Below are positions 7,673 to 62,173 of a stretch of DNA of 64,000 nt, one piece after another (position 1 is the first letter of the stretch; each line of letters begins with the position of its first letter). The notes under the pieces were generated by a model that saw only the letters and a list, made by a program, of their open reading frames with translations, ran no database searches and had not been told where the DNA came from. Source of the DNA: an uncultured Spirochaetales bacterium (GTDB lineage: Bacteria; Myxococcota_A; UBA9160; SMWR01); contig CAZBSV010000181.1 in NCBI GenBank assembly GCA_964494795.1, positions 4,591-68,590 of the forward strand. The letters run 5' to 3'. Position numbers and translations under genes: made by a program.

Positions 7673-7835
7673 AACCCGGCCAACTGGGCCCCGGCTAGTG
7701 GAGCCCTCTCATTCAGAAGCGAACCTGTCCGGGCAAACTGGGCCCCGGCTAGTGGCGCCCACTCATTCCAACACGGAGCTGTCCGGGCAGGGCCCCCGCC
7801 AGCGGCGGATTCCCTCATTAGGCCCCGGAACTGCG
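7673..7835. repeat. tandem array of a 54 bp unit, 3 copies, related in inverted orientation to the 1883-2190 repeat
   Basis: Units at about 7673-7727, 7728-7781 and 7782-7835. The reverse complement of unit 1 contains GGGGCCCAGTTGGCCGGG, identical to the core of the 88-bp repeat. Unit 3 contains CCCCCGCCAGC. Confidence 0.85.
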
Positions 7836-10303: not shown

Positions 10304-10632
10304 TGTCGAACGAAGAGACCAAGAGTGGATCGGGCTTCACGATGAACGATCCCGAGGATCCGCGGAAAAGCGGCGGGCAGCCCGCGATCGATTTCTCGAC
10401 ATTCGTGCTCTCGCTCGGAACGACCGCTCTGTATCAACTCGGAATGATCGGAGACGCCGAGAGCGACACGGAGGGGCGCGTCGAGCCCAATCTCCCGATC
10501 GCCCGCCAGACCATCGACACCCTCGAAATGCTGATGGAAAAGACCCGCGGCAACCTGACGGACGCCGAATCCAAGCTTGTCGAGAGCATCGTCTACGAGC
10601 TGCACATGAGGTTCGTCGAGGCGCGCAAGTGA
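10303..10632 (+). CDS. DUF1844-like small protein
   Basis: 109 aa. The core IDFSTFVLSLGTTALYQLG...PNLPIARQTIDTLEMLMEKTRGNL matches my recollection of the DUF1844 family. There is a 1-nt stop/start overlap upstream and a 4-nt overlap with ispE downstream. Confidence 0.6.
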   Translation: MSNEETKSGSGFTMNDPEDPRKSGGQPAIDFSTFVLSLGTTALYQLGMIGDAESDTEGRVEPNLPIARQTIDTLEMLMEKTRGNLTDAESKLVESIVYELHMRFVEARK

Positions 10633-11612
10633 CTACGCGGGCCGGGCCCGCGCGCCGCAGCGTTCGCTGTCACGCGCCCGGCAAGATCAATCTCGGACTG
10701 CGCGTCGTCGGCCGGCGGGCTGACGGCTACCACGAACTCGTGAGCTTGTTCGCGCCGCTGGACTTCGGCGACGAGGTAGAGGTCGCGATCGCAGATTCCG
10801 CGGCACTCGAGATCGAGATCGCGGTCGAGGGCGCGTGCCCAGCAGTTCGGGCCGATGACTCCAATCTCGCGCACCGGGCCGCGCGTGCCTTCGCGGAGGC
10901 CGCGGGATTGAGCTGCCGAATCGAGCTGCGGATTACAAAGCGCCTGCCGGTTGGCGCCGGCCTCGGAGGCGGCTCCAGCGATGCGGGCGCCGTGTTGCGC
11001 GCTCTCGGCGAACTCTTCCCGGGAGAATTGGAAGATTCGCGGCTGGCCGCGATCGCCCTCGAACTCGGAGCGGATGTGCCGTTCTTTCTCGATCCGCGCC
11101 CCGCGATCGTCACGGGCATCGGCGAGCGGCGCGAAGCCGTGACCGGCTTGCCCGCACTCGCCGTCCTACTCGCAAACCCAGGCATCGCGCTGGCCACCGC
11201 CGATGTATTCCGAACCTACGCGGCGATCCAGCCCGCGTTGACGAAGTCGCCCCCCGACCGTAGGATCCCGCCGCCTCGCGGGGCGCTGGGCGCGGAGGCG
11301 TTGGGCGCGGGGGTGCTGGGCGCGGGGATGCTGGGCGCGGAGGCATTGGGCGCAAAATTGGCGTTTACGGGAGTGGCCGGGCTCAGCCTCGAAAACGACC
11401 TCGAACCGATCGCCGTCCGACTCTGCCCGCCGATCGCGCGGCTGCAGAGACAGCTCCGAGCGGTAGGCGCTCAGGCGGTCGGAATGTCCGGCAGTGGAGC
11501 GACGGTTTTCGGCCTCTTCGAATCCGCGGCCGCGGCCGAGCGCGCGCTCGAAAAGGCGGCCTTCGAGCCGCCCGTCTGGGCGCGGGTCGCATCGACACAG
11601 GAATCTCGTTAG
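10629..11612 (+). CDS. ispE: 4-diphosphocytidyl-2-C-methyl-D-erythritol kinase
   Basis: Read in the frame of track ORF 10233..11612, starting at GTG 10629. GHMP-kinase motifs are APGKINLGLRVVGRRADGYHEL, KRLPVGAGLGGGSSDAGAVL and MSGSGATVFG. It contains an in-frame repeat insertion. Confidence 0.9.
   Translation: MTTRAGPARRSVRCHAPGKINLGLRVVGRRADGYHELVSLFAPLDFGDEVEVAIADSAALEIEIAVEGACPAVRADDSNLAHRAARAFAEAAGLSCRIELRITKRLPVGAGLGGGSSDAGAVLRALGELFPGELEDSRLAAIALELGADVPFFLDPRPAIVTGIGERREAVTGLPALAVLLANPGIALATADVFRTYAAIQPALTKSPPDRRIPPPRGALGAEALGAGVLGAGMLGAEALGAKLAFTGVAGLSLENDLEPIAVRLCPPIARLQRQLRAVGAQAVGMSGSGATVFGLFESAAAAERALEKAAFEPPVWARVASTQESR
11286..11354 (+). repeat. 15-bp tandem repeat, about 4.6 copies, in frame inside ispE
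   Basis: CTGGGCGCGGAGGCG-like units encode GALGAEALGAGVLGAGMLGAEALGAK. Confidence 0.85.
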
Positions 11613-11663: not shown

Positions 11664-12602
11664 ATGCAGCGCGCAAAGCTCTTCGCGGGCAACTCCAATC
11701 CCCAGCTTGCAGAGGCCGTGGCTCGCCACCTCGACACGCAACTCGGCAAGGCCGAGGTGGGCACCTTCAGCGACGGTGAGGTCAGCGTCGAGATCCACGA
11801 GAACGTCCGCGGTATGGACTGCTTCGTCATCCAGTCGACGTCGTCGCCCGCGAACACCCACCTGATGGAACTGCTGATCATGATCGATGCGCTGAGGCGC
11901 TCTTCCGCGAAGCGCATCACCGCGGTGATCCCCTACTACGGTTACGCGCGACAAGACCGCAAGGTCCGGCCGCGCGTTCCGATCTCGGCCAAGCTCGTAG
12001 CCGATCTGATCGGTGCGCCCGGAACCGATCGCCTGCTCTGCATCGATCTGCACGCGGGGCAGATCCAGGGATTCTTCAACATCCCCGTCGACAACATCTT
12101 TGCAACGCCCGTGATGCTCGAAGAGATCAAACGGCGCTACGACGGCCCGCTGACGATCATCTCGCCGGATGCCGGAGGCGTCGAACGGGCGCGCGCCTAC
12201 GCGAAACGGCTCGGTGCGAATCTCGCGATCATCGACAAACGTCGCGAAGCTTCGAACGTTGCAGAGGTGATGAACATCGTCGGCCATGTGAAGGGGCAGA
12301 CCTGCGTGATCGTCGACGACATGGTGGATACGGCGGGAACGCTCGCCGAGGCGGCCCGGGCGCTCGACCGGGACGGTGCACAAGCCGTATACGCGGTGAT
12401 CACCCATCCGGTGCTCTCGGGGCCGGCCGTCAAGCGCATCGCGGAGAGTCCGCTCCAAGAACTCATCGTCACCGACACGATCCCGCTGCGACCTGACGCC
12501 CGGGATTGTCCCAAATTGCACGTCATGACGATCGCTCCGCTGCTCGGGGAAGCGATCCGACGCATCAACAACGAAGAGAGTGTGAGCTCGCTCTTCGTCT
12601 AA
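11664..12602 (+). CDS. prs: ribose-phosphate pyrophosphokinase
   Basis: 312 aa: [48 protein letters not shown], and the PRPP loop [13 protein letters not shown]. Confidence 0.96.
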
Positions 12603-12623
12603 GGGCCTGCTGAGGAGAATTTC

Positions 12624-13304
12624 ATGGGTGAATACGCGTTGAGCGTCGAATTGCGAGAAGCACGGGGGAAGGGTGTCGCCCGCAAGCTGCGCGCGGCCGG
12701 TCGCATCCCGGGCGTCTGCTACCGACGCAACGCCGAGCCGGCCCCGATCAGCCTCGATCCGCGCGAACTCGACCTCTTGCTGCGAAAAGCCAGCGCAGGA
12801 ATGAATACGCTGATCGATCTGAAGGTCGCGGGCGGCGGCGACTTCGACGGCCGACAGGTGCTCGTCAAGGAACTCCAGCGCAATCCGATCACCGGCGCTT
12901 TTCTCCACGCGGACCTCTACGCCGTCGACCTGGCGCAGAAGATCCACGTATCGGTTCCCGTCCACCTCAAGGGCACGGCCGCCGGCGTCGCAATCGGCGG
13001 CGGCATCATGGATCACGCAACCCGCGAGCTCGATGTCGAGTGCCTGCCGAACGCGATCCCCGAGGAATTCGCGGTGGACGTGAGCGCGCTCGAGATTGGC
13101 GACTCGATCCACGTTCGCGACCTCGTCGTTCCCGACGGTGTAGAAATCCTCAATGACCCGGACGTCTCGATCGTGTCGGTGGTCGCTCCCGCAGCCGCCG
13201 AAGCAGCGGCGCCCATCGAAGCTGCCGCGGCAGGAGAAGCCGCTGCGGGCGCCAAGGCCGAGGCGACTGCCGAGGCGAGCGCCGAGGACAAGAGCGACGA
13301 CTGA
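12624..13304 (+). CDS. rplY: 50S ribosomal protein L25 / general stress protein Ctc
   Basis: 226 aa: REARGKGVARKLRAAGRIPGVCY, LVKELQRNPITGAFLHADLY, then an Ala/Glu-rich tail. Sits in the conserved prs-ctc-pth context. Confidence 0.9.
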   Translation: MGEYALSVELREARGKGVARKLRAAGRIPGVCYRRNAEPAPISLDPRELDLLLRKASAGMNTLIDLKVAGGGDFDGRQVLVKELQRNPITGAFLHADLYAVDLAQKIHVSVPVHLKGTAAGVAIGGGIMDHATRELDVECLPNAIPEEFAVDVSALEIGDSIHVRDLVVPDGVEILNDPDVSIVSVVAPAAAEAAAPIEAAAAGEAAAGAKAEATAEASAEDKSDD

Positions 13305-13318
13305 CGCGGCGATCTGCG

Positions 13319-14065
13319 ATGAAGATCGTCGTCGGACTTGGGAATCCGGGCGCGCGCTATGCGGCCACGCGCCACAACATCGGAGCTCGGATCGTCGATC
13401 GATTTGGCGTCGAGAGCGGCATCGCGCTGACGCAGCGCAGATTCGCGGGCCGCTTCGGGCAGGGGCGACTCCGCGGCCGATCGCCTGAACGGCTGGCGCC
13501 CAACCAGTCTGATCTTGAAATCGAGTCCGATCCTGAAATCGAGTCTGATCTTGAAATCAAGCTTGATCTTGAAATCAAGTCCGATCTTGAAATCAAGTCC
13601 GATCTGGAAATCGAGTCCGATCTTGAAATCAAGTTCGATCTTGACGTCGGACTGCTCATTCCCGAAACCTACATGAACCGTTCTGGTGAAGCGGTCGCCG
13701 AGGCAGTGCACGGCCTGCCGATCGAAGACGTGCGCGGAGACCTGCTCGTCGTCGTCGACGATCTCGACCTTCCCTTCGGTCGATTGCGCATTCGACAGCG
13801 AGGCAGCTCAGCGGGCCACCGAGGGCTCGAAGACATCGCCGATCGGCTCGGCACCGCCGATTTTGCGCGTCTGCGCTTCGGAATCGGGCGGCCGGCAGCC
13901 GAGAACAGCGCCGTGCCTTGGGTGCTGCAAGCCTTCACCGACGCGGAAGAATCCCTGCTGCCGGAGCGCATTGCGCTCGCCGCCGAGGCCATCGGCGCGA
14001 TCTTGATCGACGGCGTCGCTCCCTCGATGAATCGCTACAATCGCGGCCCCGAAGAGGAGGCTTAG
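13319..14065 (+). CDS. pth: peptidyl-tRNA hydrolase carrying a repeat insertion of about 50 aa
   Basis: MKIVVGLGNPGARYAATRHNIG..., ETYMNRSGEAV, VVVDDLDLPFGRLRIRQRGSSAGHRGL, RLRFGIGRP. At 248 aa it is longer than the roughly 190 aa usual for Pth. Confidence 0.93.
   Translation: MKIVVGLGNPGARYAATRHNIGARIVDRFGVESGIALTQRRFAGRFGQGRLRGRSPERLAPNQSDLEIESDPEIESDLEIKLDLEIKSDLEIKSDLEIESDLEIKFDLDVGLLIPETYMNRSGEAVAEAVHGLPIEDVRGDLLVVVDDLDLPFGRLRIRQRGSSAGHRGLEDIADRLGTADFARLRFGIGRPAAENSAVPWVLQAFTDAEESLLPERIALAAEAIGAILIDGVAPSMNRYNRGPEEEA
13508..13645 (+). repeat. 18-bp tandem repeat, about 7.7 copies, in frame inside pth
   Basis: TCYGATCTTGAAATCRAG units encode (S/L)DLEI(E/K) repeats (SDLEIESDPEIESDLEIKLDLEIKSDLEIKSDLEIESDLEIKFDLD). 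The stretch is visibly AT-richer than its flanks. Confidence 0.95.
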
Positions 14066-14071
14066 CGCGTC

Positions 14072-15355
14072 TTGAGCGAACCGAAAAAGCGCGGCTTCAT
14101 CAATATCCTTCAGGAATTCTCACTGCCACTGTTATCGGGTGTGGTCGTGGCCATGATCTGGGCCAACCTGGATTACGAATCCTACGAGCACATCATCCAT
14201 TGGGTACCGATCCCCGATCTCGAGATCTTCGGTCACCGGGTCACGCATCATTGGCTCGTCAACGACATCTTCATGGTGTTCTTTTTCGGAATTGCCGCCA
14301 AGGAAATCACCGAATCCTGCCTGCCAGGTGGCAACCTCAATCCGATTGCGAAGTCCATCAATCCGCTGCTGGCAACACTGGGTGGAGTCGTCGGCCCGGT
14401 GTGCGTCTTCTTTCTCGGAATGTCGTTCCTCTACGGCCCGACGGACGATCTCGAAATGCTGCGGCGCGGCTGGGGGATCCCGACCGCGACGGACATCGCG
14501 CTCGCGTGGCTCGTCGCGCGAACCGTATTCGGCAAGGGACATCCAGCGATCAACTTCCTGCTGCTGCTCGCCGTAGCTGACGACGCGATCGGTCTCGGGA
14601 TCATCGCGATCTTCTACGGCGATCCGCATCTTCCCGCGCGCCCGGAGTTTCTGCTCCTGATCGCGCTCGGGATGGCGATCGCCTACGGGATGCGCAGGGC
14701 CCGGCTCAAGTCCTGGATTCCCTACATCGCAATCTGCGGGCCCATCTCATGGCTCGGGCTGTCTCTCGCGCACCTCCACCCCGCGCTGGCTCTCGTGTTC
14801 ATCGTGCCGTTTCTGCCCGGACCGCGGCGCGACGTCGGACTGTTCGTAGACGAGGACGAGATCGACCGCATGGGCGACGCGCTCGCCCACGATCTGCACA
14901 TGGGCCACTCTCCGCTGCACCAGTTCGAACACCAGATGAAACTCTTCGTCGATCTCGGACTGTTCTTCTTCGCGTTCACCAATGCGGGCGTCGTTTTCGC
15001 TTCGATCGGAAGCATGACCTGGTTGATTTTCGGATCGCTCGTGATCGGCAAGACGCTCGGCATCACGCTGCTGGGCCTGTTCGCTTCGATGATCGGTTTT
15101 CCGCTGCCCGACCGGATGGGAATTCGCGAACTGATCATGGCCGGTTTCGTGGCGGCGCTCGGTCTGACCGTCGCCCTCTTCGTGGCGGGCGCGGCCTTCA
15201 CGGATCCGAGCCTGCTCGGGCAGGCGAAGATGGGCGCGCTGTTTTCGGGATTCGTCGGCCTCGCGGCCATCCTGCTCGGGCGCGCGCTCGGAATGGGCCG
15301 CCGCGCGGTCGAGCCGGACGCCGCTGCCGAGACCGCCGCGGCTTCGACTTGCTGA
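14072..15355 (+). CDS. nhaA: Na+/H+ antiporter NhaA
   Basis: 427 aa, polytopic: WLVNDIFMVFFFGIAAKEI, GIPTATDIALAWLV, and a further dozen hydrophobic segments. TTG start. Confidence 0.9.
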   Translation: MSEPKKRGFINILQEFSLPLLSGVVVAMIWANLDYESYEHIIHWVPIPDLEIFGHRVTHHWLVNDIFMVFFFGIAAKEITESCLPGGNLNPIAKSINPLLATLGGVVGPVCVFFLGMSFLYGPTDDLEMLRRGWGIPTATDIALAWLVARTVFGKGHPAINFLLLLAVADDAIGLGIIAIFYGDPHLPARPEFLLLIALGMAIAYGMRRARLKSWIPYIAICGPISWLGLSLAHLHPALALVFIVPFLPGPRRDVGLFVDEDEIDRMGDALAHDLHMGHSPLHQFEHQMKLFVDLGLFFFAFTNAGVVFASIGSMTWLIFGSLVIGKTLGITLLGLFASMIGFPLPDRMGIRELIMAGFVAALGLTVALFVAGAAFTDPSLLGQAKMGALFSGFVGLAAILLGRALGMGRRAVEPDAAAETAAASTC

Positions 15356-18735: not shown

Positions 18736-19344
18736 GTGCGGGAATACGAAACCACCCTGATCATCCAACCGGAGATCTCCGACGAGGGCGTCGCTGCGCT
18801 GCGGGAGCGCCTCGACGGCGTTCTTGGCGGCTACGGATCATCCATCCGGCTGCTCTACGACGACCTCGGCAAGCGCCGACTCGCCTATGAGATCAAGAAC
18901 TTCCAGAAGGGGCGCTACGTGCTGCTCCAATTTCTGGACGATGGATCACACATCAAGGCCTTCGAGCGCGCACTTCGACTCGAAGACTCGATCATCCGCT
19001 TCCTGACCGTGCAGGTACACGAGACGGTCGAAGACGTCGCGGCGCGCAAGGCCGAAGCCGCGGAAGAAGAGAGGACTCGCGCCGAGAAGGCCGCTGAACG
19101 CGCCGCCCGCGAGGCCGAAGATGCCGCGCGACAAGTTGCGGAGGCCGCAACGGCGCGCAGTTCCAAGAGCGACGAGCTGGACGCGAGCGACTCCGCCGAT
19201 TCCGATTCCGATTCTGATTCCGATTCTGATTCCGAGTTCGATTCAGAGTTTGAGTCAGAGTCAGAAGACGATCCGCCGAGCGGCGCAATCGCTGCGAAGA
19301 CCCGGAAGCCGAAGAAAGGCGCCGCCGAGGAGGTTTCGACATGA
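18736..19344 (+). CDS. rpsF: 30S ribosomal protein S6 with long acidic Ser/Asp/Glu repeat tail
   Basis: [17 protein letters not shown]...[20 protein letters not shown]...IIRFLTV. The tail [28 protein letters not shown] is encoded by 6/12-bp repeats. GTG start after GAGGAGG. Confidence 0.93.
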
Positions 19345-26037: not shown

Positions 26038-26963
26038 CGCCGGCCATGGTAAGGTGGGGCCCCGTGATGCGCACCATTGCCCGACAGCGCGAAATCGAAC
26101 GCTCGGATCCGCGGGTTCGCCCCGGGCGCGGTTTCGGTTTCGGGCTTGGTTTTGATTTCGCGCGCGGTTTCGGTTTCGGTTTCGGGCGCGGCCTCGGACG
26201 CGGTCTCGGGCGCGGCCTCGGGCGCGGGCGCGGGCGCGACGGTGACCGAACGACCGCGAGCAGGCTCGTCGGGCTGACGCTCGGCCTCGCGCTGTCCGCG
26301 GTCGCCACCCACCCAGCCGCGGCGGAAACACCCGATGCAAGCGCGGCGGCTCCGACGAACACGTGGTACGCCCAGTCGATCTCGCACAGTGACACCGGAA
26401 TGAACGTCACGTATCTCTGGTCGCTGAAATCCAAATTCCGCGCAGAAATCGTGGCCAGGGGGCATCGGCTCGTGACGATCGTCAACGGAGACACCTACTA
26501 CGCGTACGACGTGCTGACGATGAGCGGCATCGCGATCCGGCGCGCGGCCTCGGCGATCGCCGCCGATTCGCCCAATCGCCGACCGTTTGGAAACGAGGCC
26601 CAGTTGCTGATCGAGCAGGGCGGCGAAAGGATTCGCGAAGATTCCGTCGCCGGAAGACGCGCCGCGATCTATCAGGTCACCGATCAGGACGGTCGCCGGA
26701 TCGTCTGGGTAACCGAAGACGACCGGCAATTGCCGATACGCGTCGAAGTCTTCGACCGCAAGGCGGGGTCGACGCGCTACAAAGAATACGTCGATTGGGT
26801 GAGCGGAATCGAAATGCCGGATGCGTTCTTCGAGCCCGAGCCCGGCATTCAATTCGAGCGCCTCGAGCTCAAGGAGTACATCCGCAAAGTGCTCGACCAG
26901 GATCCCGCGAGCTCGATCCCGATCCTCTTCCGGGAACTGCTACACGGCCCGGCGCCCGACTAG
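26025..26963 (+). CDS. hypothetical exported protein (LolA-like fold is only a guess); start uncertain
   Basis: Has a hydrophobic signal or anchor (LVGLTLGLALSAVATHPAAA) and then a beta-rich domain ending ...IVWVTEDDRQLPIRVEVFDRKAGSTRYKEYVDW.... No canonical start lies just before the signal segment, so any start lies upstream of or within the Gly/Phe/Arg repeat region at 26127-26240. Confidence 0.5.
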   Translation: MRPSSPAMVRWGPVMRTIARQREIERSDPRVRPGRGFGFGLGFDFARGFGFGFGRGLGRGLGRGLGRGRGRDGDRTTASRLVGLTLGLALSAVATHPAAAETPDASAAAPTNTWYAQSISHSDTGMNVTYLWSLKSKFRAEIVARGHRLVTIVNGDTYYAYDVLTMSGIAIRRAASAIAADSPNRRPFGNEAQLLIEQGGERIREDSVAGRRAAIYQVTDQDGRRIVWVTEDDRQLPIRVEVFDRKAGSTRYKEYVDWVSGIEMPDAFFEPEPGIQFERLELKEYIRKVLDQDPASSIPILFRELLHGPAPD

Positions 26964-30180: not shown

Positions 30181-33100
30181 CTAGGGGCGCGCGCGCTGGC
30201 GGCGCCGACGCGCGAGAACCGCGAGCCCGAGCGCGCCGACACCCTGTAGGATCAGCAGATGCGGCTCGGGGACGGCCTGGAGCCGCTTCAGTTGTGCGCC
30301 TTCCACCGAAACCGTCGGCATGCTGATCAGCTGGTAGCCGCCACCGAGTGGCGAACCGAGCACACCGTAAGTCACGCCGACGAGCTCGCCCTCTTCGTTG
30401 ATCGCCCACGCCCAACAGATATCCGACACGCCGTCGTCGAAACTGCAGCGCGCCTCGCCCTCGCCGACCGGGAAGCGCTTCTCTAGCGCCAACATGCCGT
30501 CCTCGAGCTGGTTGAAGACGGCGAGACCGCTGATTCCCTCGGTGGCGTAGACGCGGTTGTCGTGGCTCGAGATCGAGACCTTGAAGAACGCGGTGTTGGG
30601 CGACGCGGCGATGCGCTGGAACTCGACCGGATTGGTTGGATCCTGGATGTCGACGACGAGGAACCCGCCGATCCAGAGCGGCACGAACGCGAGCCCGCCC
30701 GATACCTCCACGTCTTGGGGCACGGCTTCCTGATCCGAGAGCGGAATGTTCGTCGGATTGGTGTCGAGGTGCCCGAGCAGGGCTGGCGCACTCGGGTCGC
30801 TGACGTCGACGATTTGGAGTCCCTCAGTCGATGCCACGTAGGCGAGCAGACGCGGCGGACCCTCGCCCAGTGCGAGATCGAGTCCCACCTGTGAGAAATC
30901 GAGTTCGACCGAGACGGCGAGCGAGGCACCCCAATCTTCGGTGTCGCCAATGGATCCGCGCGGCTCAATCTGGCAGCTGTTCGGCACGCAATCCCCGATC
31001 ACTTCGAAGATCTGCAGCCCCTGCCAATACGAGGCCACATAGAGCATCAGATTCTGTCCGTCCGCGGACACGGAGCCCGCGGCCTCTTCGGCCAACCCGA
31101 ACGGGATCGGGATGCTGCCGCGGAAGCTGGGATTGCTCGAATCCGACACGTCGACGCCAACGACCCCGCAGGCGCCAGCGGAAATCACGGCATCGACTTC
31201 TTCACCCTCTTCGATCAGTTCGACCTCGTCGGCAAAAAAGCCGCCCGGGCACTGGCTGTTGGTGGCTGTGAAGTTGCTCATCGGCGAAGCCGCGTCGCGA
31301 TTCGACACGTTGTGGATGTCGAGTCCGCTGCGCTGCAGCGCGAGATAGGCGCGGTCCTTGGCGTCGTTGATCTTGATCGCCTCGGGCCAATTCGACACCC
31401 CGAACGGCCCGTGAATGACGGGCGTCGGAACCGCGCTGGGCGTCGCCGTGGGAGTGAGAGTAGGCGTCGCAGTCGGCGTGGGCGTCTCCGTCGGCGTGAA
31501 CGTCGGCGTCACCGTCGGAGTGAACGTGGGCGTCGCGGTCGGAGTGAACGTTGGCGTGGCAGTCGGCGTCGCGGTCGGAGTGAACGTGGGTGTCGCGGTC
31601 GGAGTGAACGTCGGCGTGGCAGTCGGAGTTGCTGTCGGCGTGGGTTCCGCGCACTCGTCGGGAACGCCGTTTTCGTCTTTGTCCGAGCTGCCGCCCGCGC
31701 CGGAAACCTCCGAGCAAGCCTTACCGAAACCGAATGGATTCACGTCGCAGGTATCGGCGATGCCATTCTCGTTGCAGTCTGCATCCCAGAACGCGAGCGC
31801 GGGACTCGAGAAAATCGTCACCTCCCCGTCGTCGAGACATGAGGCCACGATTTCGTCCACGCCGATTCCGCCGTCGCCCATGTAGGTAAAGCTCGCTTCG
31901 CCAGCCTCGTCGGTCGTCGCCGAGCCCGAATCGCCAGCGTTCGGTCCCGAGGTGACGTTGAAGCCGACTTCCCTTCCAACCACGGGGTCGACGACGTTGA
32001 TGGTCACCCTCGCGGTGACCGTGTGGCTCGCTCCGGGTGAATTCAGACCCCGATCGGGTGTCAGCGCGACCCGCTTTTCGGCGATGGGATCGAGCGCGAG
32101 TCCTCCCGGGTAGCCATACGAATCGTAAAGCGCAAAACCATACGCGTAAGCGCCAAACGGACGCGGGCAGGACAACACATGCGTACCGGCCGACACCGGC
32201 TGCCGAGCGCCAGAAAATCCACTGCTTCCAATGACCGAGAAGGGCGCTGAAAACGCAGCTCCGTCGATCGTGCAGCTGCCGACATCCAACGTGTCGACCG
32301 CAACGTTGATGTAGTTGCTGAACGCGACAGGCTCGGTCGCAGGGGTGCTGAGCGTATAGCTTCGAAGGAACTGCTCAGTCGGCGGGATCATCATCATGAA
32401 CGGATCCGAACTCACATCGTCCGCAGTCGTTCCCTTCGAGTATTGCATCACCATCACGGGTCGCGTCGCGTCGATCTTGTGGAAGGTGTCCGACGCAAGA
32501 TCAGCCTCGTAGTACGCAGCGCGACCGAGTGTCGCCACGAGAACGCCGTCGATGCGAACTTCGGTTCCGGCGTCCCGCGCGATGATGCGAAACAGATCGC
32601 CTCTGAGCCGGGTCGCGAGGGGCACCGTCAAGAAACTCACGCCCCAGGTTGCCGTCGGTGGCAATTGTTCGACAATGTGGTCACACGCGTATGCGGTTTC
32701 CGGAATATTGATGCATATCGCTCCCCCATAGACCGCCACCGGCTTGTCCGACTGAATGATCGATCCGCTCACGTCCACGGATTGAAGTTGGTAGGTTTCT
32801 AGGCGATCCAGATTGATCTGATAGGGAACTCCCGCGACTCGAATTCCGCTGGAGTTGCTCAGAGTGATCGTGACGGTGGTTTCGTCTTGCACACCGACGA
32901 TCAGCAACTCGGAATTCACGGAAGTTGCGCCGAAGCTCAGCACGAGGTGGTCCGTACCGAGTATGTCGGTCGGAAGCCCGAGGAACGCGTCCGTCGTGTA
33001 CTGGACCTGATTCAAGCCGTACACGACGACGTCCGCCTCGGCAGTCACGCGCACGCCCAGGTTCGCGAATGTGTCGGAATCGAAAGCGCGCACCTCGATC

Positions 33101-33650: not shown

Positions 33651-34610
33651 TTGCCGCGGGGCGAACGCTGCTGGCCTGGAAGCTTCGGGGCGCGCGCATC
33701 GAGCAGCCGCGAAAGGATCTGTGTGTCGGACCAGACAGCGAATTCCCCCGACGCGCCGGGGTCAGAACGAGCGCTGATTTCCTCGGACCCGCCGGGGTCG
33801 AAAAAGGCGCCGATATCCCCGGGCCGGCCGGGGGGCGGCCGCCGTGCTTCGGGCAGGGCGGCGGCAGGGCTCTGGCCGGCTGGCCGGGCCCGCTGGTTGC
33901 CGCTCGCGTGTATCGGCCTCGCCGCGGCGCTCGCTAGCCTCACAGCGCTCTGGGTCTCGCGTTCGATGACCGGCGAGGCCCGCGACGGCCTCGAAATCAC
34001 CACAGCGGCAACGCGCGACGAGAAGCCCCCTCTCAGCGACGCGCAGCGCCGCGAAGCCGCGCAGAGGGCGCGATTCACAGCCGTGCGCGACGCGCTGCTT
34101 GCGCTCGATCCATCGCGTCTGCCGGGTCTTGCGTCCGAGAGGGACAGAGCTGGACTGAGTGCTCGCGTCTGGACGCTTCCCGACCCGGTCGAAAACGATG
34201 CGATTTACCGCGTGGGAATCGAGGCGGATTGCGCGTGCTCGGCGCTGTTGTTTTCCGTGAGCGCGACGAGCGACGAAATTGCGCTCCTCTACCCAAATTT
34301 GTTTCAGATCAATTCGCGGCTCGAGGCGGGCGCGCCGGTCGAGGTGCCGTCGACACCGGAGTGGACGCTGCGGGCGGTGGGTGGCGAAGGGGTGGATGTG
34401 CTCGAGCTGCTGATATTTTCGGAGCCGCCCGCATTTCCGAGTGATCGCAGCTCGAGCTGGCTCGCCGCGCCCGACCGGCCGGATCGAATCGCGGAACTCG
34501 AAGCGCTGCTCGAGGCGCTCCAAACCGGCGAGTGGGGTGTTGCGACGACGACGCTCCGGATCGTTTCGAGCGCGGTCGGGAATGCAGCGCCCCTGCGCGA
34601 ACCGCTTTGA
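33651..34610 (+). CDS. membrane-anchored DUF4384-like protein
   Basis: Low-complexity N-terminus, one TM helix (WLPLACIGLAAALASLTALWV), then IYRVGIEADCACSALLFSVSATSDEIALLYPNLFQINSRLEAGAPVEVP...GEGVDVLELLIFSEP, which fits the DUF4384 pattern (YRVGE..., LLFPN, AG..V.P). The start is uncertain: TTG 33651, or GTG 33723 after GAAAGGA. Confidence 0.6.
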   Translation: MPRGERCWPGSFGARASSSRERICVSDQTANSPDAPGSERALISSDPPGSKKAPISPGRPGGGRRASGRAAAGLWPAGRARWLPLACIGLAAALASLTALWVSRSMTGEARDGLEITTAATRDEKPPLSDAQRREAAQRARFTAVRDALLALDPSRLPGLASERDRAGLSARVWTLPDPVENDAIYRVGIEADCACSALLFSVSATSDEIALLYPNLFQINSRLEAGAPVEVPSTPEWTLRAVGGEGVDVLELLIFSEPPAFPSDRSSSWLAAPDRPDRIAELEALLEALQTGEWGVATTTLRIVSSAVGNAAPLREPL

Positions 34611-34783
34611 AACGCTTGAAAATGCGTGTTGACAGCGAGCCCGTGGGTTGGTCCAATGCTCCGGCGTCGCGCGCGGATCCGCGGCAGCGCAGGCTGCCTA
34701 GCCCGCCCGCGAGTGACGCTGCAGAGCATGCGCGGGCAGCCTGGAAGTGTTTCTCGCCAAGCAGCGCCCTTCGAAGCTGCTGG

Positions 34784-34898
34784 CGATTGATTGGACGATT
34801 GATTTGACGATTGACTGGGCGATTGATTTGACGATTGACTGGGCGATTGACTGGCCGATTGATTGGGCGATTGACTGGACGATTGACGATTGATTGGA
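34784..34898. repeat. 12-bp tandem repeat, about 9.6 copies (CGATTGAYTKGR), immediately upstream of the TPR/beta-barrel gene
   Basis: Direct reading gives units at 34784, 34796, 34808, ..., 34887. Each carries TTGAYT. The array ends 7 nt before ATG 34905. Confidence 0.95.
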
Positions 34899-36519: not shown

Positions 36520-37464
36520 ATGCGGAATATGCGGACTGGAACTTCTGAGCTGAGACGGATCTTTCTCTGCACGGCCAGCTTCGGCGCGTTCGCCTGCCTT
36601 GCGGGAAGTGCATGGGCGGCGAACGACGCGCGGCTGACAGCCGTGAAAGGGGATGCGTCGATCTCGGCTGGCGCACTCGACAGCCACAGCGAACTCGCCG
36701 ATGGCGACGATCTCGAGACCGGAGACGAGAGCGGTTGCTCGATCCTGTTGGATCAGAACGCCGTGGTGGAACTCTGCGGTCAGACCCGGATCTCGTTCGC
36801 GACCGACGAGAAGCGCGGCAACCGGATCGTGAACGTCGAATCCGGCAAGTTGCGCATGGTCGTCGAGCCGCGCTCGCCCGGCGAGCGGATCGAAATCCAC
36901 ACCCCGGCGGCAATCGCGACGATCCTCGGGACGATCATCTACATATCGGTCGACCCGATTACCGGCGAAGAGACCTTCACCTCGTCGGACAGCCGGGTCA
37001 ACATTCGCGACCGCGACGAGGTGGACTGCACGCCGATCGGGCTTCCCGCAGAAGCGGGAATACCGCGATGCGCCGAGGGCACCACGATCGGTGGCCTCGA
37101 ACAGCTCACCGTGGTGCCGGGCGAGAAGCAGCGCGACAAGAAGAGTGTCGACGAACAGGAACTCGCGCAGCTCGGCGGCTGCCTGTTCGACTTTCACGAA
37201 CTCGCGGCGCGCATCGATCGAGCGGCCCAGGAGAGCAAGTCGACCGACCGCATCGTCGCGATCGACGTTGCTGTCGCGGACCTGCCGCCGGTTTCCCTCG
37301 AAGAAGGACCGTCGATCGAAACGGAGAGCGGCGACGACCTCGACGCGGAAATCAATCCGTTCGACGACTCCAGCCAGGAAGAGCTGATCCGGGAATCGCT
37401 CGCGCCGGATACGGATATTCCCGACTGCGGCGGCGGCATTCCGGGCGAGCACTGCGACTTCTGA
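36520..37464 (+). CDS. secreted FecR-domain protein
   Basis: 314 aa. RBS GAGGAGAGAGAAA. Signal peptide FLCTASFGAFACLAGSAWA. FecR-like beta region LTAVKGDASISAGA...LADGDDLETGDESGCSILLDQNAVVELCGQTRISF...VESGKLRMVV...IHTPAAIATILGTIIYISV. Acidic C-terminal half ending CGGGIPGEHCDF. Confidence 0.7.
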   Translation: MRNMRTGTSELRRIFLCTASFGAFACLAGSAWAANDARLTAVKGDASISAGALDSHSELADGDDLETGDESGCSILLDQNAVVELCGQTRISFATDEKRGNRIVNVESGKLRMVVEPRSPGERIEIHTPAAIATILGTIIYISVDPITGEETFTSSDSRVNIRDRDEVDCTPIGLPAEAGIPRCAEGTTIGGLEQLTVVPGEKQRDKKSVDEQELAQLGGCLFDFHELAARIDRAAQESKSTDRIVAIDVAVADLPPVSLEEGPSIETESGDDLDAEINPFDDSSQEELIRESLAPDTDIPDCGGGIPGEHCDF

Positions 37465-37630
37465 CGAGCGACCACCGCGACTTCTGACGATCGACCACCG
37501 CGATTTCTGACGCGCAAACACCGCGATTTCTGACGCGCAAACACCGCGATTTCTGACGCGCAAACACCGCGACTACTGATGCGCAAACACCGCGACTACT
37601 GATGCGCAAACACCGCGACTACTGATGCGC
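37450..37630. repeat. 23-bp tandem repeat, about 7.9 copies, starting inside the last codons and stop of the FecR gene
   Basis: Units start at 37450, 37473, 37496, 37519, 37542, 37565, 37588 and 37611. There are three sub-variants in blocks of 2+3+3 (..GACTTCTGACGAKCGAC / ..GATTTCTGACGCGCAAA / ..GACTACTGATGCGCAAA). The first unit contains CAC TGC GAC TTC TGA, the gene end. Confidence 0.95.
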
Positions 37631-41435: not shown

Positions 41436-43460
<2,025 letters not shown>

Positions 43461-43781
43461 GGCGGATGCTCCTGCACGCTCGCGGGGGACTTCGCGGGGC
43501 GTCGAAGGTAGAGCGCGAAGCCTTTGCGGGCGAGTCCGCCGCGAGGGGTTGCGCGAGCGGGGGCGCCTACTCACAATCCCCCTGCGCTTCGAGCCGCGCG
43601 GGAGCCGCGCGGGAATCGCGCAGGAATCGCGTAGAAATCAAGCGGGAGCCGCGCAGGAATCACGCAGAGAGAGCGCCGAAATCGCGCGGGCAGCGCGCGG
43701 CGCCCGCTCGAGCAGCGGCGCGGATCTTCCGACGCGCGCTGCGCGCGGGCCCGAAGGGTGAGGAGGTTGCGCTGGGTTACG

Positions 43782-44959: not shown

Positions 44960-45043
44960 ACCGTCGAGCATGCCGTCGAGCATGCCGTCGAATATGCCGT
45001 CGAATATGCCATCGAGCATTCCGTCGAATATGGCGTCGAGCAT
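44960..45043. repeat. 12-bp tandem repeat, 7 copies (GCCGTCGARYAT), between dus and thiE
   Basis: Direct reading gives units at 44960, 44972, 44984, 44996, 45008, 45020 and 45032, alternating GAGCAT and GAATAT endings. Confidence 0.9.
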
Positions 45044-45065
45044 GCTCTCCAGACGTCGCGCCACG

Positions 45066-46157: not shown

Positions 46158-46344
46158 CCTGATCTGCCGTGCCTAAAAACTGGCCGTGCCTAAAAACTGG
46201 CCGTGCCTGAAAACTGGCCGTGCCTGAAAACTGGCCGTGCCTAAAAACTGGCCGTGCCTAAAAACTGGCCGTGCCTAAAAACTGGCCGTGCCTAAAAACT
46301 GGCCGTGCCTGGAAACTGGCCGTAGCTAAAAACTGGCCGTGCCT
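46158..46344. repeat. 17-bp tandem repeat, about 11 copies (AAAAACTGGCCGTGCCT), in the divergent dus / moeA intergenic region
   Basis: Direct reading gives near-perfect copies with occasional G substitutions in the A-tract and one GTAGCT variant. The array is bracketed by TGCCTGAT on both sides. Confidence 0.95.
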
Positions 46345-47754: not shown

Positions 47755-48906
47755 ATGAAGCCCAAGCAACGCCCGGCTTGCCCGAACTTCTCTTCGGGCC
47801 CGTGCGCGAAACGCCCGGGTTGGACGCCCGACGTTCTGGCCGACGCCAAATTGGGTCGGTCGCACCGCTCCAAGCCGGGTCGGGCGAAACTTCTCGAGGT
47901 CATCGAACGTTCGCGTCGCGCGCTCGGCATCCCCGACGACCACCGCGTCGGGATCGTGCCCGCTTCCGACACGGGCGCCGTGGAAATGGCGCTTTGGTCG
48001 CTGCTCGGCGCCCGGGGCGTGGAGATCCTGGCCTGGGAAAGTTTCGGATCCGAGTGGGTCGACGACGTGATCGCTCAACTCGGGCTCCAGCGCGCGCGCG
48101 CGTGGGTTGCTGATTACGGCGAGCTCCCGGATCTGGATCAGGTGGACTTCGCCAACGACGTCGTCTTCACCTGGAACGGAACGACTTCGGGCGTCTGCGT
48201 TCCCGATGGCGACTGGATCCCCGCAAACCGGTCAGGTTTGACGATCTGCGACGCAACATCGGCGGTGTTCGCAATGGACCTCCCGTGGCAGAAACTCGAC
48301 GTCGTGACCTGGTCGTGGCAGAAGGTGCTCGGGGGCGAGGCCGGACACGGAATGCTGTCGCTTTCGCCGCGAGCCGTCGCGCGACTCGAGAGCTTCGAGC
48401 CGCCGCGACCGCTGCCCAAGATTTTCCGATTGACCAAGCGCGGCAAGTTGATCGAGGGAATCTTTCGCGGTGACACGATCAACACGCCCTCGATGCTTTG
48501 CGTCGAGGACGCGATCGACGCGCTGCGCTGGGTGGAATCGATCGGCGGGCGCCGCGAAGTCCGCAGGCGCTCGGAAGCCAATCTCGAGCGGATCGCCGAG
48601 TGGGTCGAGCGCAGCTCGTGGGCGGCGTTTCTCGCGAGTCGAGCGGAAATCCGCTCGTGCACATCCGTTTGCCTGCAGATCGCCGATCCCTGGTTTCAGG
48701 CGCTCGAACCGGACGAGCAGGCAGCGACCGCCAAGAGTGTCGCCCAGCGCCTGGAGGAAGAGGGCATCGCGTACGACATAGCCTCGTATCGGGATGCGCC
48801 TCCCGGACTGCGGATCTGGGCCGGAGCCACCGTCGAGAACAGCGACCTCGAGGCCTTGCTGCCTTGGCTCGATTGGGCATACGCCGAAATCAAGGGCAGC
48901 GCTTGA
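47755..48906 (+). CDS. serC: phosphoserine aminotransferase (class V aminotransferase)
   Basis: 383 aa: [55 protein letters not shown] (PLP Lys context), INTPSM. Confidence 0.85.
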
Positions 48907-49015
48907 TCGGAGACTGGGCGTACGCCGAAGTCAAGGGCAGCGCTTGATCGGAGATTGCGCGTCGATCAGAAGTCGAGCGCGGCGCTTGATCGGGAGATTG
49001 CGCGTCAATCAAAAA
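48874..49015. repeat. tandem repeat of about 41 bp, about 3.3 copies, beginning inside the last 10 codons of serC
   Basis: Copy 1 is TGGGCATACGCCGAAATCAAGGGCAGCGCTTGATCGGAGAC (48874-48914, containing the serC stop at 48904-48906). Copy 2 is nearly identical (48915-48955). Copies 3 and 4 are degenerate. Each carries the small hairpin ATCAAG-n7-CTTGAT. Confidence 0.85.
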
Positions 49016-50502
49016 TCAACCTGGAAGCGCATCTCCGCGATATCCGAATCACCGTCGACGTCGAGTACGATCGGCGGGCCGAGCAGCGTTCGATCCCGCA
49101 AGCTCGAGTGCACGTAGTTCAACAGCACCCGCGCGTTCGGGTAGAGATACCAGTTGAGGCCCGCGGTCATCGACCAGAGCGTGCCGCCTTGGATCATCTG
49201 GTCGTTGAGGTCGACGTAGCCAAAGCGCGCGGCGATCTCCCACGCCCCCCAGTCCCCGGTCGTGGGATTGAAGTTGGCGCGCGGGCTCACGCGTCCGAAT
49301 TTGCCCTGACCGAGAAGGTAGTTCTGGTGCTCTCCGGTGAGGAAGAGGCCGGCTTGTGCGTATGCGCCCCAGAAATCCTCGTTCTTGCCCGTGTAGGCGT
49401 CCACGAACGCATGGCTATAGGATCCCTGGAACGAAGCCGGCCCCCACACCATCGCCAGTTCCGATAACACGATATCCGTATCATCGGCAGGAATGCTGGT
49501 TCCGGTATCCGCAAAATTCGGGGCGAGATGCGCGTCCGGGCGCCGAGAAAATTGCTGCATCGCATCGTGGTCCTGGAATCGATGCGAGTAGGTAAGACCC
49601 AGGTGAACGACGCGCTCGCCTTTTCCTTCGTAGAGCGGGACCGCCGCCAAGCGGCCCGTCACGCGCCAATCGTCGTCATCGTCGAACGAAAAGCCCGAGG
49701 AATTGGTGCGCTCGAAGACTCCGAGCTGCCACAACAGGCGCTGATCGAGAACCGCATTGGCGGCCAGGGCGCCGACGCTGCGCGCGGGCGCGGAATACTC
49801 GGCCAGTGAGTCTTCCAGGAAGATGTCGTCGTTACTGTTGGTCTGCTGTTCGAGCGAGTACGGCTCCTTCATCTGACCGACCGTCACAGTGCCAATCGGG
49901 CCGAGGTTCTGCAGTCCGACGTACATATCGGCCAGGCTGACGTCTCCACTCCCCGTGTTGGCAAACTCGAGCTGGGATTTGAAGAACAGATTTTCCCAGA
50001 GCGTACCCGAGAAGAAGATCCGCGCGCGTCGAAATTCGGTTCCAGATCCGTTGGAGCCGAGCGCGTTGTCGATTTCGTCAGCGGCGTGGATGTACGCCCA
50101 GTCGTTCTGGATTCGACCGCCGAATTTGAGCCGCAGCGCGCCGTCCTCGCGATCGAGCTGGAATCCGTTGTTCCAGTTGAAGTTCCAGTCGCCCGCTGCG
50201 GGCTGTTCGACGGCCGCTTCCTGTGTAGCGGGCGCGGCGTTTTCGACGACCACCGCCGTGGCCGCGGCCGCGCGCTCGACGGCAGCGTCCACGCGTTCGC
50301 GCTCTTCCGCGCGCGCTCGCTCCTTCAGGGAGCGGTATTTTTCCGCGTCGATCATTCCGGCCTGGAGCAGGATGTCGAGCAGCTCTTCGGTCACGCTGCC
50401 TTCCAGCGCAACATCGTCCGCCATGGCCAGCCGCGGCGCGACAGCGATTGCGAGCGTGGCGATAAAGCTCGCCAGCAGGGTCGATCTGAAAAACCAACGC
50501 AT
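49009..50502 (-). CDS. phosphate-selective porin O/P family outer-membrane protein
   Basis: ATG 50502 follows GGAGGAG. Signal peptide MRWFFRSTLLASFIATLAIAVAPRLAMA, a coiled segment, then FGGRIQNDWAY, FRRARIFFSGTL...FKSQLEF, LADMYVGL, GQMKEPYSLE, GLNWYLYPNARVLLNYV, and the terminus MRFQVDF. Confidence 0.82.
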   Translation of the reverse strand: MRWFFRSTLLASFIATLAIAVAPRLAMADDVALEGSVTEELLDILLQAGMIDAEKYRSLKERARAEERERVDAAVERAAAATAVVVENAAPATQEAAVEQPAAGDWNFNWNNGFQLDREDGALRLKFGGRIQNDWAYIHAADEIDNALGSNGSGTEFRRARIFFSGTLWENLFFKSQLEFANTGSGDVSLADMYVGLQNLGPIGTVTVGQMKEPYSLEQQTNSNDDIFLEDSLAEYSAPARSVGALAANAVLDQRLLWQLGVFERTNSSGFSFDDDDDWRVTGRLAAVPLYEGKGERVVHLGLTYSHRFQDHDAMQQFSRRPDAHLAPNFADTGTSIPADDTDIVLSELAMVWGPASFQGSYSHAFVDAYTGKNEDFWGAYAQAGLFLTGEHQNYLLGQGKFGRVSPRANFNPTTGDWGAWEIAARFGYVDLNDQMIQGGTLWSMTAGLNWYLYPNARVLLNYVHSSLRDRTLLGPPIVLDVDGDSDIAEMRFQVDF

Positions 50503-62100: not shown

Positions 62101-62173
62101 ACGTGCCCGGCCTGCGCGCCTGAACGTGCCCGGCCTGCACGCCTGAGCGTGCCCGGCCTGCACGCTTGAGCGG
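62095..62173. repeat. 23-bp tandem repeat, about 3.4 copies, starting at the last codon and stop of the PilZ gene
   Basis: GCCTGAACGTGCCCGGCCTGCGC (62095-62117, containing the TGA stop at 62098-62100), then copies at 62118-62140 and 62141-62163, and a partial copy to 62173. Confidence 0.9.

Follow-up and report, generated by a model that had tools for sequence, protein, structure and literature searches.

The window analysed here, a stretch of 64 kb (64,000 nucleotides) of the contig CAZBSV010000181.1 from an uncultured bacterium, harbors on its forward strand a pth gene (positions 13319..14065, stop codon included), coding for a peptidyl-tRNA hydrolase (Pth) of 248 residues that embeds an array of 18-bp tandem repeats. 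The search of the window with Tandem Repeats Finder (TRF) returned at this locus a single array on the forward strand (13506..13644; period 18, 7.7 copies, 87% matches, no indels, score 201), and an independent repeat finder retrieved seven copies with a spacing of exactly 18 nucleotides. The seven amplified units, whose consensus is TCCGATCTTGAAATCAAG, span positions 13508..13633 of the same strand and encode residues 64–105. The array is in frame with the open reading frame (ORF), and its codon register reads SDLEIE, SDPEIE, SDLEIK, LDLEIK, SDLEIK, SDLEIE, SDLEIK, and, as the last unit, FDLDVG. A core of 15 nucleotides, GATCTTGAAATCRAG, occurs seven times with at most two mismatches, versus 0.24 occurrences expected; none of 100 shuffles reached seven, and no copy of this core was found elsewhere in the 64-kb window. 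The locus thus holds at least three head-to-tail, non-random copies of a unit whose length is divisible by three, within an ORF that is intact and conserved on both sides, as in a coding minisatellite.

The array differs from its surroundings in composition. Its GC content (0.40) is the lowest among all the arrays of the window, with flanks of about 0.66; in windows of 120 nucleotides, the values are 0.43–0.44 over the array versus 0.60–0.73 on each side. Furthermore, the GC content at third codon positions (GC3) is 0.45 in the array versus 0.76 in the rest of pth, the array is enriched in A (0.30 versus 0.18), and it uses the codons CTT and TCT, which are rare in the genes of the window (5% of the Leu codons and 4% of the Ser codons). 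Hence, its codon usage is unadapted and its composition has not been ameliorated. These features confirmed the original prediction of an in-frame, AT-rich, slippage-type array of 18-bp units in Pth. The units are not identical to each other: their mean pairwise difference is 12.7%, and six out of seven are distinct. The unit has a quasi-palindromic sequence (CTTG-AAAT-CAAG, GATC), and the array gives better folding scores than its shuffled versions (z of −2.45 as DNA and −3.43 as RNA), shuffles being a weak control for a repeat; the minimum free energy structures account for little of the ensemble, and the centroids have almost no structure. Each unit also holds one GATC site, giving eight sites in 144 bp (13508–13651) with an 18-bp spacing. 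The same tetranucleotide occurs 814 times in the whole window (12.7 per kb), about four times the value estimated from the base frequencies (about 3.2 per kb).

The gene that hosts the array is a regular pth in all other respects. The Pfam PF01195 match (E 3.6e-53; 180.6 bits versus a cut-off of 27) is broken into two stretches by the array, the E values for solved Pth structures are about 1e-30, and 36 Pth/CRS2 sequences of the PDB were retrieved at E ≤ 1e-21. Residues 3–55 and 113–240 align to residues 6–59 and 63–188 of the Mycobacterium tuberculosis Pth, and the extra sequence therefore sits between residues 59 and 63 of the latter, which are adjacent positions of a normal Pth. The catalytic residues N9, H19, and D147/D148 and the peptide-site residue N120 are present and invariant in the 86 loci compared, and the basic clamp for the acceptor stem and 5' phosphate of the tRNA (R157, R159, and R184/R186) is conserved; these positions correspond to Asn10, His20, Asn68, Asp93, Lys103, Lys105, and Arg133 of the Escherichia coli enzyme (PMC3488237). 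The ratio of nonsynonymous to synonymous substitutions (dN/dS) outside the loop is 0.19–0.27 between the window and four relatives, and 0.15–0.25 among the relatives themselves. Judging from these sequence comparisons, the core of the enzyme is intact and under normal purifying selection, with no sign of decay, and the enzyme looks functional, peptidyl-tRNA hydrolysis being its predicted activity. One further position had been taken as a possible oddity, i.e., Arg168 (13820–13822), the equivalent of E. coli Asn114, by which the clade has His-Arg-Gly versus His-Asn-Gly in E. coli and M. tuberculosis. It turned out to be ordinary family variation (N in 50, K in 24, R in 3, and H in 1 of 78 Pths from other phyla).

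The array is not limited to one assembly. A Logan assembly of the run SRR9952630, independent of the window and made with a different assembler, contains the exact 248-residue protein and the identical array of 144 bp, with the same order and number of units. The corresponding contig (3,431 bp) matches positions 11918–15348 of the window, save for two single-nucleotide polymorphisms (SNPs), both outside pth; exact-protein look-ups of the neighboring prs and nhaA gave no match, owing to single SNPs. Moreover, a contig from the run SRR15166932 (L092) matches positions 12480–13519 with three SNPs in 1 kb, spans the junction between the unique flank and the first unit (CCAACCAG followed by TCTGATCTTGAA), and ends 12 nucleotides into the array. 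The array is therefore present in at least two further read sets, and its copy number is confirmed once, at the assembly level. The end of the SRR15166932 contig inside the array might be due either to low coverage or to a graph branch arising from heterogeneity in copy number or units, and it represents the best available lead for polymorphism.

A model of the protein was built with AlphaFold2 (AF2) from an alignment of 121 sequences; only the best of five models was good, with a mean predicted local distance difference test (pLDDT) of 70.8. The comparison of its core with the PDB by Foldseek gave, for solved Pth chains, template modelling scores of 0.80–0.88, normalised to the target, and a root mean square deviation of 2.3 Å for 2pth, as expected of the single α/β-domain fold of Pth1. 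In this model, strands 44–52 and 107–115 form a hairpin with the array at its tip, in agreement with the surface-loop position that had been proposed. Residues 55–104 have a pLDDT below 50 and no secondary structure; a single-sequence run on the hairpin and the insert gave a pLDDT of about 50 and, again, no secondary structure, and both runs are uninformative on whether the segment is a β-ribbon or disordered. The strand that follows the array is nine residues long and runs into the Asn120 active-site loop. The tRNA contacts published for the E. coli enzyme, that is, Lys103, Lys105, Arg133, Gly109, Asp96, the C-terminal helix, and Lys142, include none in the hairpin (PMC3488237). The course of the strand together with these contacts therefore suggests that the hairpin tip is distal to the catalytic crevice and to the tRNA surface, at the opposite end of the sheet.

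The physical character of the repeated peptide was also analysed. Its net charge is −15, while that of the remaining protein is neutral. At 180 degrees, the peptide has a hydrophobic moment of 0.871, versus 0.117 ± 0.088 in shuffled sequences (0 of 5000 reached 0.871), and at 100 degrees a moment of 0.05, which is lower than the mean of the shuffles. The pattern is therefore β-amphipathic, with S/L/I on one face and D/E/K on the other, and an amphipathic helix was ruled out by the moment at 100 degrees. Thus, of the amphipathic β or helical appendage put forward in the original prediction, the β-type signal stands and the helical one does not, and the AF2 model gives the segment no confident structure.

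As regards the origin of the array, the unit lying immediately 3' of the seven amplified ones (TTCGATCTTGACGTCGGA, encoding FDLDVG; 13634..13651, forward strand) represents the start of a conserved β-strand, xLD[VI][AG]LL[VI]PET, followed by the YMNRSG substrate loop. In the DNA alignment with the closest relatives (L081, L085, and L086; about 80% DNA identity, with 204-residue Pths and no array), this 3'-most unit is orthologous to their GATCTGGAYRTCGGR, which can be written degenerately as GATCTGGA(C/T)(A/G)TCGG(A/G), and the segment is present in all the relatives. In register, it matches the consensus of the seven units at 12 out of 18 positions (binomial P from 2e-4 to 1.4e-3), and only 2.7e-4 of the other 18-mers of the window match the consensus as well; the 18-mer directly 5' of the array matches it at 4 out of 18 positions, that is, at the level of chance. 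That 5' side (QGRLRGRSPERLAPNQ; 13460..13507, forward strand, residues 48–63) is the non-repetitive part of the enlarged hairpin loop and, in the alignments, corresponds to the variable loop of the clade (RGRLPRSAGESPERP in the relatives). The changes from the native 3' unit to the amplified ones (GAC to GAA, GTC to ATC, and GGA to GAG or AAG) are all towards A. This Pth is 44 residues longer than those of the closest relatives, and the seven units account for 42 of them.

No external source was retrieved for the array. Probing 5.8 billion proteins with the repeat peptide alone gave nothing at E ≤ 10, so that it does not correspond to any known repeat module; an exact scan of a metagenome collection for two adjacent units (GATCYKGAAATCRAGNNNGATCYKGAAATC) gave no match; and among the GTDB representative genomes only two members of the clade were found (L001 and L002), with the array in neither. 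In addition, no terminal repeats or target-site duplication were detected at the array beyond the tandem structure itself. On these sequence grounds, the array is a local tandem amplification of native β-strand codons and not an insertion of foreign DNA, and the word "inserted", used in the original prediction, is better abandoned. The same prediction had called it recent. This holds insofar as none of the nearest sampled relatives has the array; with these at a synonymous divergence (dS) of about 0.53 and with units differing by 12.7%, its age is poorly bounded.

A comparison of Pth sequences, carried out on the stretch between the invariant Gly47 and Leu113 (numbering of the window protein), revealed that the site of the array is itself peculiar. 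This segment is 11 residues long in 68 out of 75 Pths from other phyla (range 7–17) and, in keeping with the view of Pth as a compact enzyme with little length variation, the solved Pth chains as deposited have 171–222 residues, mostly 186–204. In the 120 closest relatives (P0001–P0120; uncultured bacteria labelled as Myxococcales or Deltaproteobacteria, 62–77% identical to the window Pth), the segment has 18–49 residues, and in the window Pth it has 65. The lengths in the relatives step by four residues, i.e., 21 (35 proteins), 25 (20), 29 (28), 33 (16), 37 (14), 41 (2), and 49 (1), and 92% of the non-zero pairwise differences are multiples of four. The additional residues are tetrapeptide repeats of the PEGP-AEGP-TEGP, AEHP, GEGS, or AEIP type, the relatives carrying from zero to seven copies of this 12-bp/tetrapeptide unit at the tip. 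Even when the cores of two relatives are at least 95% identical, their loop lengths diverge in 44% of such pairs, the difference being 4, 8, or 12 residues, and a clean single-unit difference is represented by ...AEGPTEGPR... versus ...AEGPTEGPTEGPR...; in the relative L082 (1399–1457) the DNA itself still shows the repeat (12/24-bp repeats; period 24, 2.3 copies, 87%). Nearly all the Pth length variation of the clade falls at this tip. The window belongs to a short-form subgroup (RGRLPRSAGESPERP followed by DLDVGL), in which a different 18-bp repeat has grown from the adjoining strand codons.

The original prediction was to fall if close relatives carried the same insert in a diverged, non-repetitive form, and the outcome was a third one. 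The relatives do carry extra sequence at the site, but it consists of a different repeat of 12 bp (four residues), which is itself variable. These comparisons show that the tip is a long-standing, clade-wide hotspot of repeat expansion, and that the 18-bp array itself is lineage-specific.

The lineage of the window is also rich in tandem arrays at other loci. The window contains 22 arrays at a TRF score of at least 70 and 14 at a score of at least 100, with expectations from the relatives of 7.4 and 4.1 arrays per window, respectively (P 1e-5 and 1e-4). As controls, 77 kb of syntenic DNA of relatives and 555 kb from other phyla were used; at a score of at least 100, the excess is about threefold over the relatives and about eightfold over the other phyla. 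An eightfold excess over the close relatives, obtained with 37 kb of controls, dropped to about threefold once the syntenic controls of 77 kb were used. Since the relatives too are enriched in arrays compared with other phyla, the repeat tendency is partly clade-wide. The period is divisible by three in all eight in-ORF arrays (at least 2.5 copies) versus three out of eight outside ORFs.

A companion of the pth array is an in-frame array of 15-bp units in ispE, about 2 kb upstream of pth (coding sequence 10629–11612, 327 residues; array at 11277..11353, forward strand, 5.2 copies, with (A/V/M)LGA(E/G) units), which was identified by TRF, the ORF, BLASTP, and the Pfam GHMP kinase match. The protein shares 76% identity with the 307-residue orthologue of the relative L085, with one 20-residue gap, the exact number of residues that the array adds, and in the other relatives IspE has 295–307 residues. 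The Logan assembly of SRR9952630 contains the ispE array as well. Both arrays, in pth and in ispE, are explained by a mutational propensity of the lineage, filtered by frame preservation and structural permissiveness, without any Pth-specific function.

On the whole, we consider it probable that the array is a coding minisatellite, that is, a variable-number tandem repeat (VNTR) born of slippage, which arose in place at a permissive hotspot and is tolerated there. The 18 bp encoding the first six residues of a core β-strand (x-D-L-D-V/I-G) were duplicated in tandem, the upstream copies drifted towards A, and the array grew to seven units, probably by replication slippage or unequal recombination. 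The quasi-palindromic unit plausibly aids slippage, and the folding of the array is compatible with slipped-strand intermediates. The product would be a tolerated, largely neutral, very acidic excursion, probably flexible, and it would be tolerated because the tip is distal to the catalytic crevice and to the tRNA contacts. It might persist because slips of whole units cannot break the frame and because the lineage makes tandem arrays unusually often. The idea that an out-of-register slip would impose strong selection for multiples of 18 is misplaced: whole-unit slips always keep the frame, and the real filter is a unit length divisible by three, as seen in the in-ORF versus the non-ORF arrays.

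Some points weigh against this explanation. The near-neutrality of the array is something that we infer, and the distance of the tip from the active site is drawn from topology and literature, not from coordinates. The excess of arrays is not significant within the 18-kb block that is syntenic with the relatives. The likely copy-number polymorphism of the original prediction did not emerge, since in the single other full-length observation (SRR9952630) the 18-bp array has the same number of copies. The peptide is far from random, with a perfect β-type alternation over about 48 residues and its charge of −15. Furthermore, no sampled member of the clade has gone back to the family-standard segment of 11 residues, the minimum being 18, and the charge of the loop in the relatives falls with length, from −0.4 at 21 residues to −4 at 37, with −12 in the window loop. 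This growing acidity of the longer loops could reflect selection for an acidic appendage.

The last points lead to the only rival with real support, according to which a variable-length acidic extension is kept by selection on the Pth hairpin, in the clade and by a second route in this lineage, for some function, such as electrostatic steering or a partial mimicry of the polyanionic tRNA, solubility or protection from aggregation, an oligomerisation ribbon, or the evasion of a docking inhibitor. We regard it as unlikely, though worth considering: the extension has been lost in none of the 120 relatives, the loop becomes more negative as it lengthens, two unrelated types of unit yield acidic loops at one site, and the β-type amphipathic moment is extreme. 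Yet both founder motifs (xEGP and xDLDVx) are already acidic, so that amplification alone explains the acidity; the sequence and the length of the loop are unconstrained even at core identities of at least 95%; the AF2 model assigns the insert no structure, and none of the published tRNA contacts lies at this site. Moreover, the uncharged array (xLGAx) of ispE argues for a mutational cause and not for a Pth-specific one. A bolder version, to which we give somewhat less credit still, is that the hairpin tip of the whole clade has been selected to bear an acidic appendage of variable length, which the lineage of the window, having carried the short tetrapeptide form, re-invented from β-strand codons. 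If this were true, the appendage might be an electrostatic modulator or mimic of tRNA, or a moving target against a Pth-binding inhibitor, and the perfectly β-amphipathic segment of 48 residues, with its charge of −15, may form a ribbon or mediate self-association.

The other alternatives have far lower probabilities. It is very improbable that the array acts at the nucleic-acid level, either as an mRNA structure or run of rare codons throttling the translation of pth or by virtue of GATC sites clustered every 18 bp. The folding scores, the rare CTT and TCT codons, the low GC3, and the eight GATC sites would fit such an element, but the window has no Rfam match, the folds have low ensemble frequencies and nearly unstructured centroids, GATC is common throughout the window, the relatives manage without the array, and nothing ties it to regulation. 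Even less probable is that a short-read assembly created or distorted the array or its copy number. Repeats are indeed error-prone in assemblies, and the SRR15166932 contig breaks inside this one; nevertheless, the identical array came from a different assembler with two SNPs, the junction with the flank recurs in a third read set, six out of seven units are distinct, the frame of a conserved gene is kept, and the ispE array was reproduced as well. We would place at the same very low level the idea of a decaying gene, in which the insert inactivates this pth copy and another hydrolase carries the essential function: the 44 residues added with respect to the closest relatives and the possibility of a paralogue beyond the window would favor it, but the ORF is intact, the catalytic and tRNA-binding residues are all conserved, the dN/dS is as in the relatives, and the gene lies in its canonical prs-rplY-pth position. 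The least probable of all is a foreign or mobile insertion, to which the much higher AT content of the array might have pointed; the 3' unit is the native orthologous segment, the window and the metagenome collection hold no second copy, the peptide has no homologue, and, apart from the tandem structure, the locus shows neither terminal repeats nor a target-site duplication.

The nearest described phenomenon on a genome scale is, by analogy, that of the amino acid tandem repeats (aaTRs) of Borg extrachromosomal elements, whose in-ORF units are all divisible by three, versus 14–38% of the intergenic ones (Schoelmerich et al. 2023, PLoS Biol, PMC9879509). Much as in Borgs, the 64 kb covered by the window are rich in both intergenic and in-ORF arrays, with all of the latter but only three out of eight of those outside ORFs divisible by three; the pth array recalls them in its partial or diverged flanking unit (here the founder, at the 3' side), the enrichment in A, the lineage specificity, and the poor structure in predictions. 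On the other hand, the Borg repeats are essentially perfect in their nucleotides, whereas the pth array, with 87% matches, is not near-perfect; Borgs are AT-rich archaeal elements whose aaTR proteins are mostly extracellular or membrane-bound, whereas we are dealing with a bacterial chromosome segment of 65% GC, whose hosts are essential cytosolic enzymes (Pth and IspE) and in which the enrichment in A is not general across the arrays.

Bacterial coding VNTRs and simple-sequence contingency loci are known as typing markers, in surface proteins bearing repeats, and in phase-variable genes. The pth array resembles coding VNTRs in its head-to-tail units and whole-unit changes, and a copy number differing between close lineages was observed for the 12-bp repeat of the clade. 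Unlike contingency loci, it lies in a housekeeping enzyme and not in a surface or virulence protein, and it cannot turn expression on or off, since the gain or loss of an 18-bp unit leaves the frame unchanged; a unit of this length inside a coding sequence does not make a phase-variable contingency locus. Conserved signature indels are clade-specific insertions in conserved housekeeping proteins, with a fixed length and sequence within the clade. The pth site recalls them as a clade-restricted surface-loop extension of a universally conserved enzyme (at least 18 residues versus the norm of 11), but its repeats change in length by quanta of four or six residues. Finally, the window protein agrees with canonical Pth1 enzymes (E. 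coli 2PTH/3VJR and M. tuberculosis 2Z2I) in its fold, catalytic residues, basic tRNA clamp, and gene neighborhood, and departs from them in the 54 extra residues at the hairpin tip with respect to the 11-residue norm and in the charge of −15, being about neutral without the array. Literature searches on tandem repeats or insertions in Pth, and on both Sequence Read Archive runs, found nothing relevant. The array behaves like other coding VNTRs and aaTRs and does not represent a new system or mechanism; the clade-level hotspot is the noteworthy twist.

The locus represents a clean, datable example of a new protein sequence made from a gene's own codons in an essential and otherwise length-invariant enzyme, and the pattern of the clade is unusually clear evidence that one structural site can be a persistent hotspot of repeat expansion. 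In practical terms, strains of this uncultured lineage could be typed by means of the pth locus and of its companion in ispE, and the Pth variants are a natural insertion series for probing loop tolerance in a drug-target enzyme.

Concerning the neighborhood, pth lies in a conserved block on the forward strand in which, according to Pfam, it is preceded by prs (11664–12602) and by rplY/ctc, coding for L25 (12624–13304), and followed by a gene for an NhaA-type Na+/H+ antiporter (14072..15355, PF06965), syntenic in the relatives. The prs-rplY-pth-nhaA block is kept in every relative with recovered flanks, and the prs-rplY order is the same in the relatives L082, L085, L087, L089, and L090. Scans of the full 64-kb window with Rfam (at the gathering threshold) and for tRNA genes gave no matches. 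A perfect direct duplication of 22 bp (607–650) was initially taken as a frameshifting in-gene repeat and then discarded, since the frame-specific GC3 and the translation put it immediately before the point where a PilT-type ATPase gene begins (gene at about 650–1856).

Many of the other arrays lie in intergenic gaps (1882–2184, 7678–7789, 33744–33833, 34780–34887, 37450–37630, 43595–43699, 44961–45045, 46166–46344, 48871–49019, and 62092–62169), with examples such as units of 89 bp in 3.4 copies at 95%, of 17 bp in 10.5 copies at 93% (GCCGTGCCTAAAAACTG), and of 23 bp in 7.9 copies at 93%. These arrays might have a regulatory role, or might simply stem from the same tendency to generate repeats; one corresponding gap of the relatives harbors arrays of another unit length (L085, 2363–2521; L089, 5055–5269). 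Within genes, an rpsF-like coding sequence (18736–19344) codes for a ribosomal protein S6 with an acidic repeat tail (19196–19265) deriving from 6/12-bp repeats, and the protein at the matching position of the relative L087 (12741–13457) has several arrays too. Further in-frame arrays (42695–42778, 61559–61649, 26123–26238, 31465–31643, and 59558–59653) are hosted by an AMP-binding/acetyl-CoA-synthetase-like enzyme (15/30-bp units), a PilZ-domain protein (21 bp, KPEAAAE-like), an unannotated protein of 312 residues (GFGFGRGLGRG), and the Pro-Thr linkers of two large secreted-type proteins (IgGFc_binding/LVIVD and PilY1-like). The window encodes several proteins related to type IV pili (PilT-like, PilY1-like, and PilZ), which fits the Myxococcales and Deltaproteobacteria labels of the nearest genomes.

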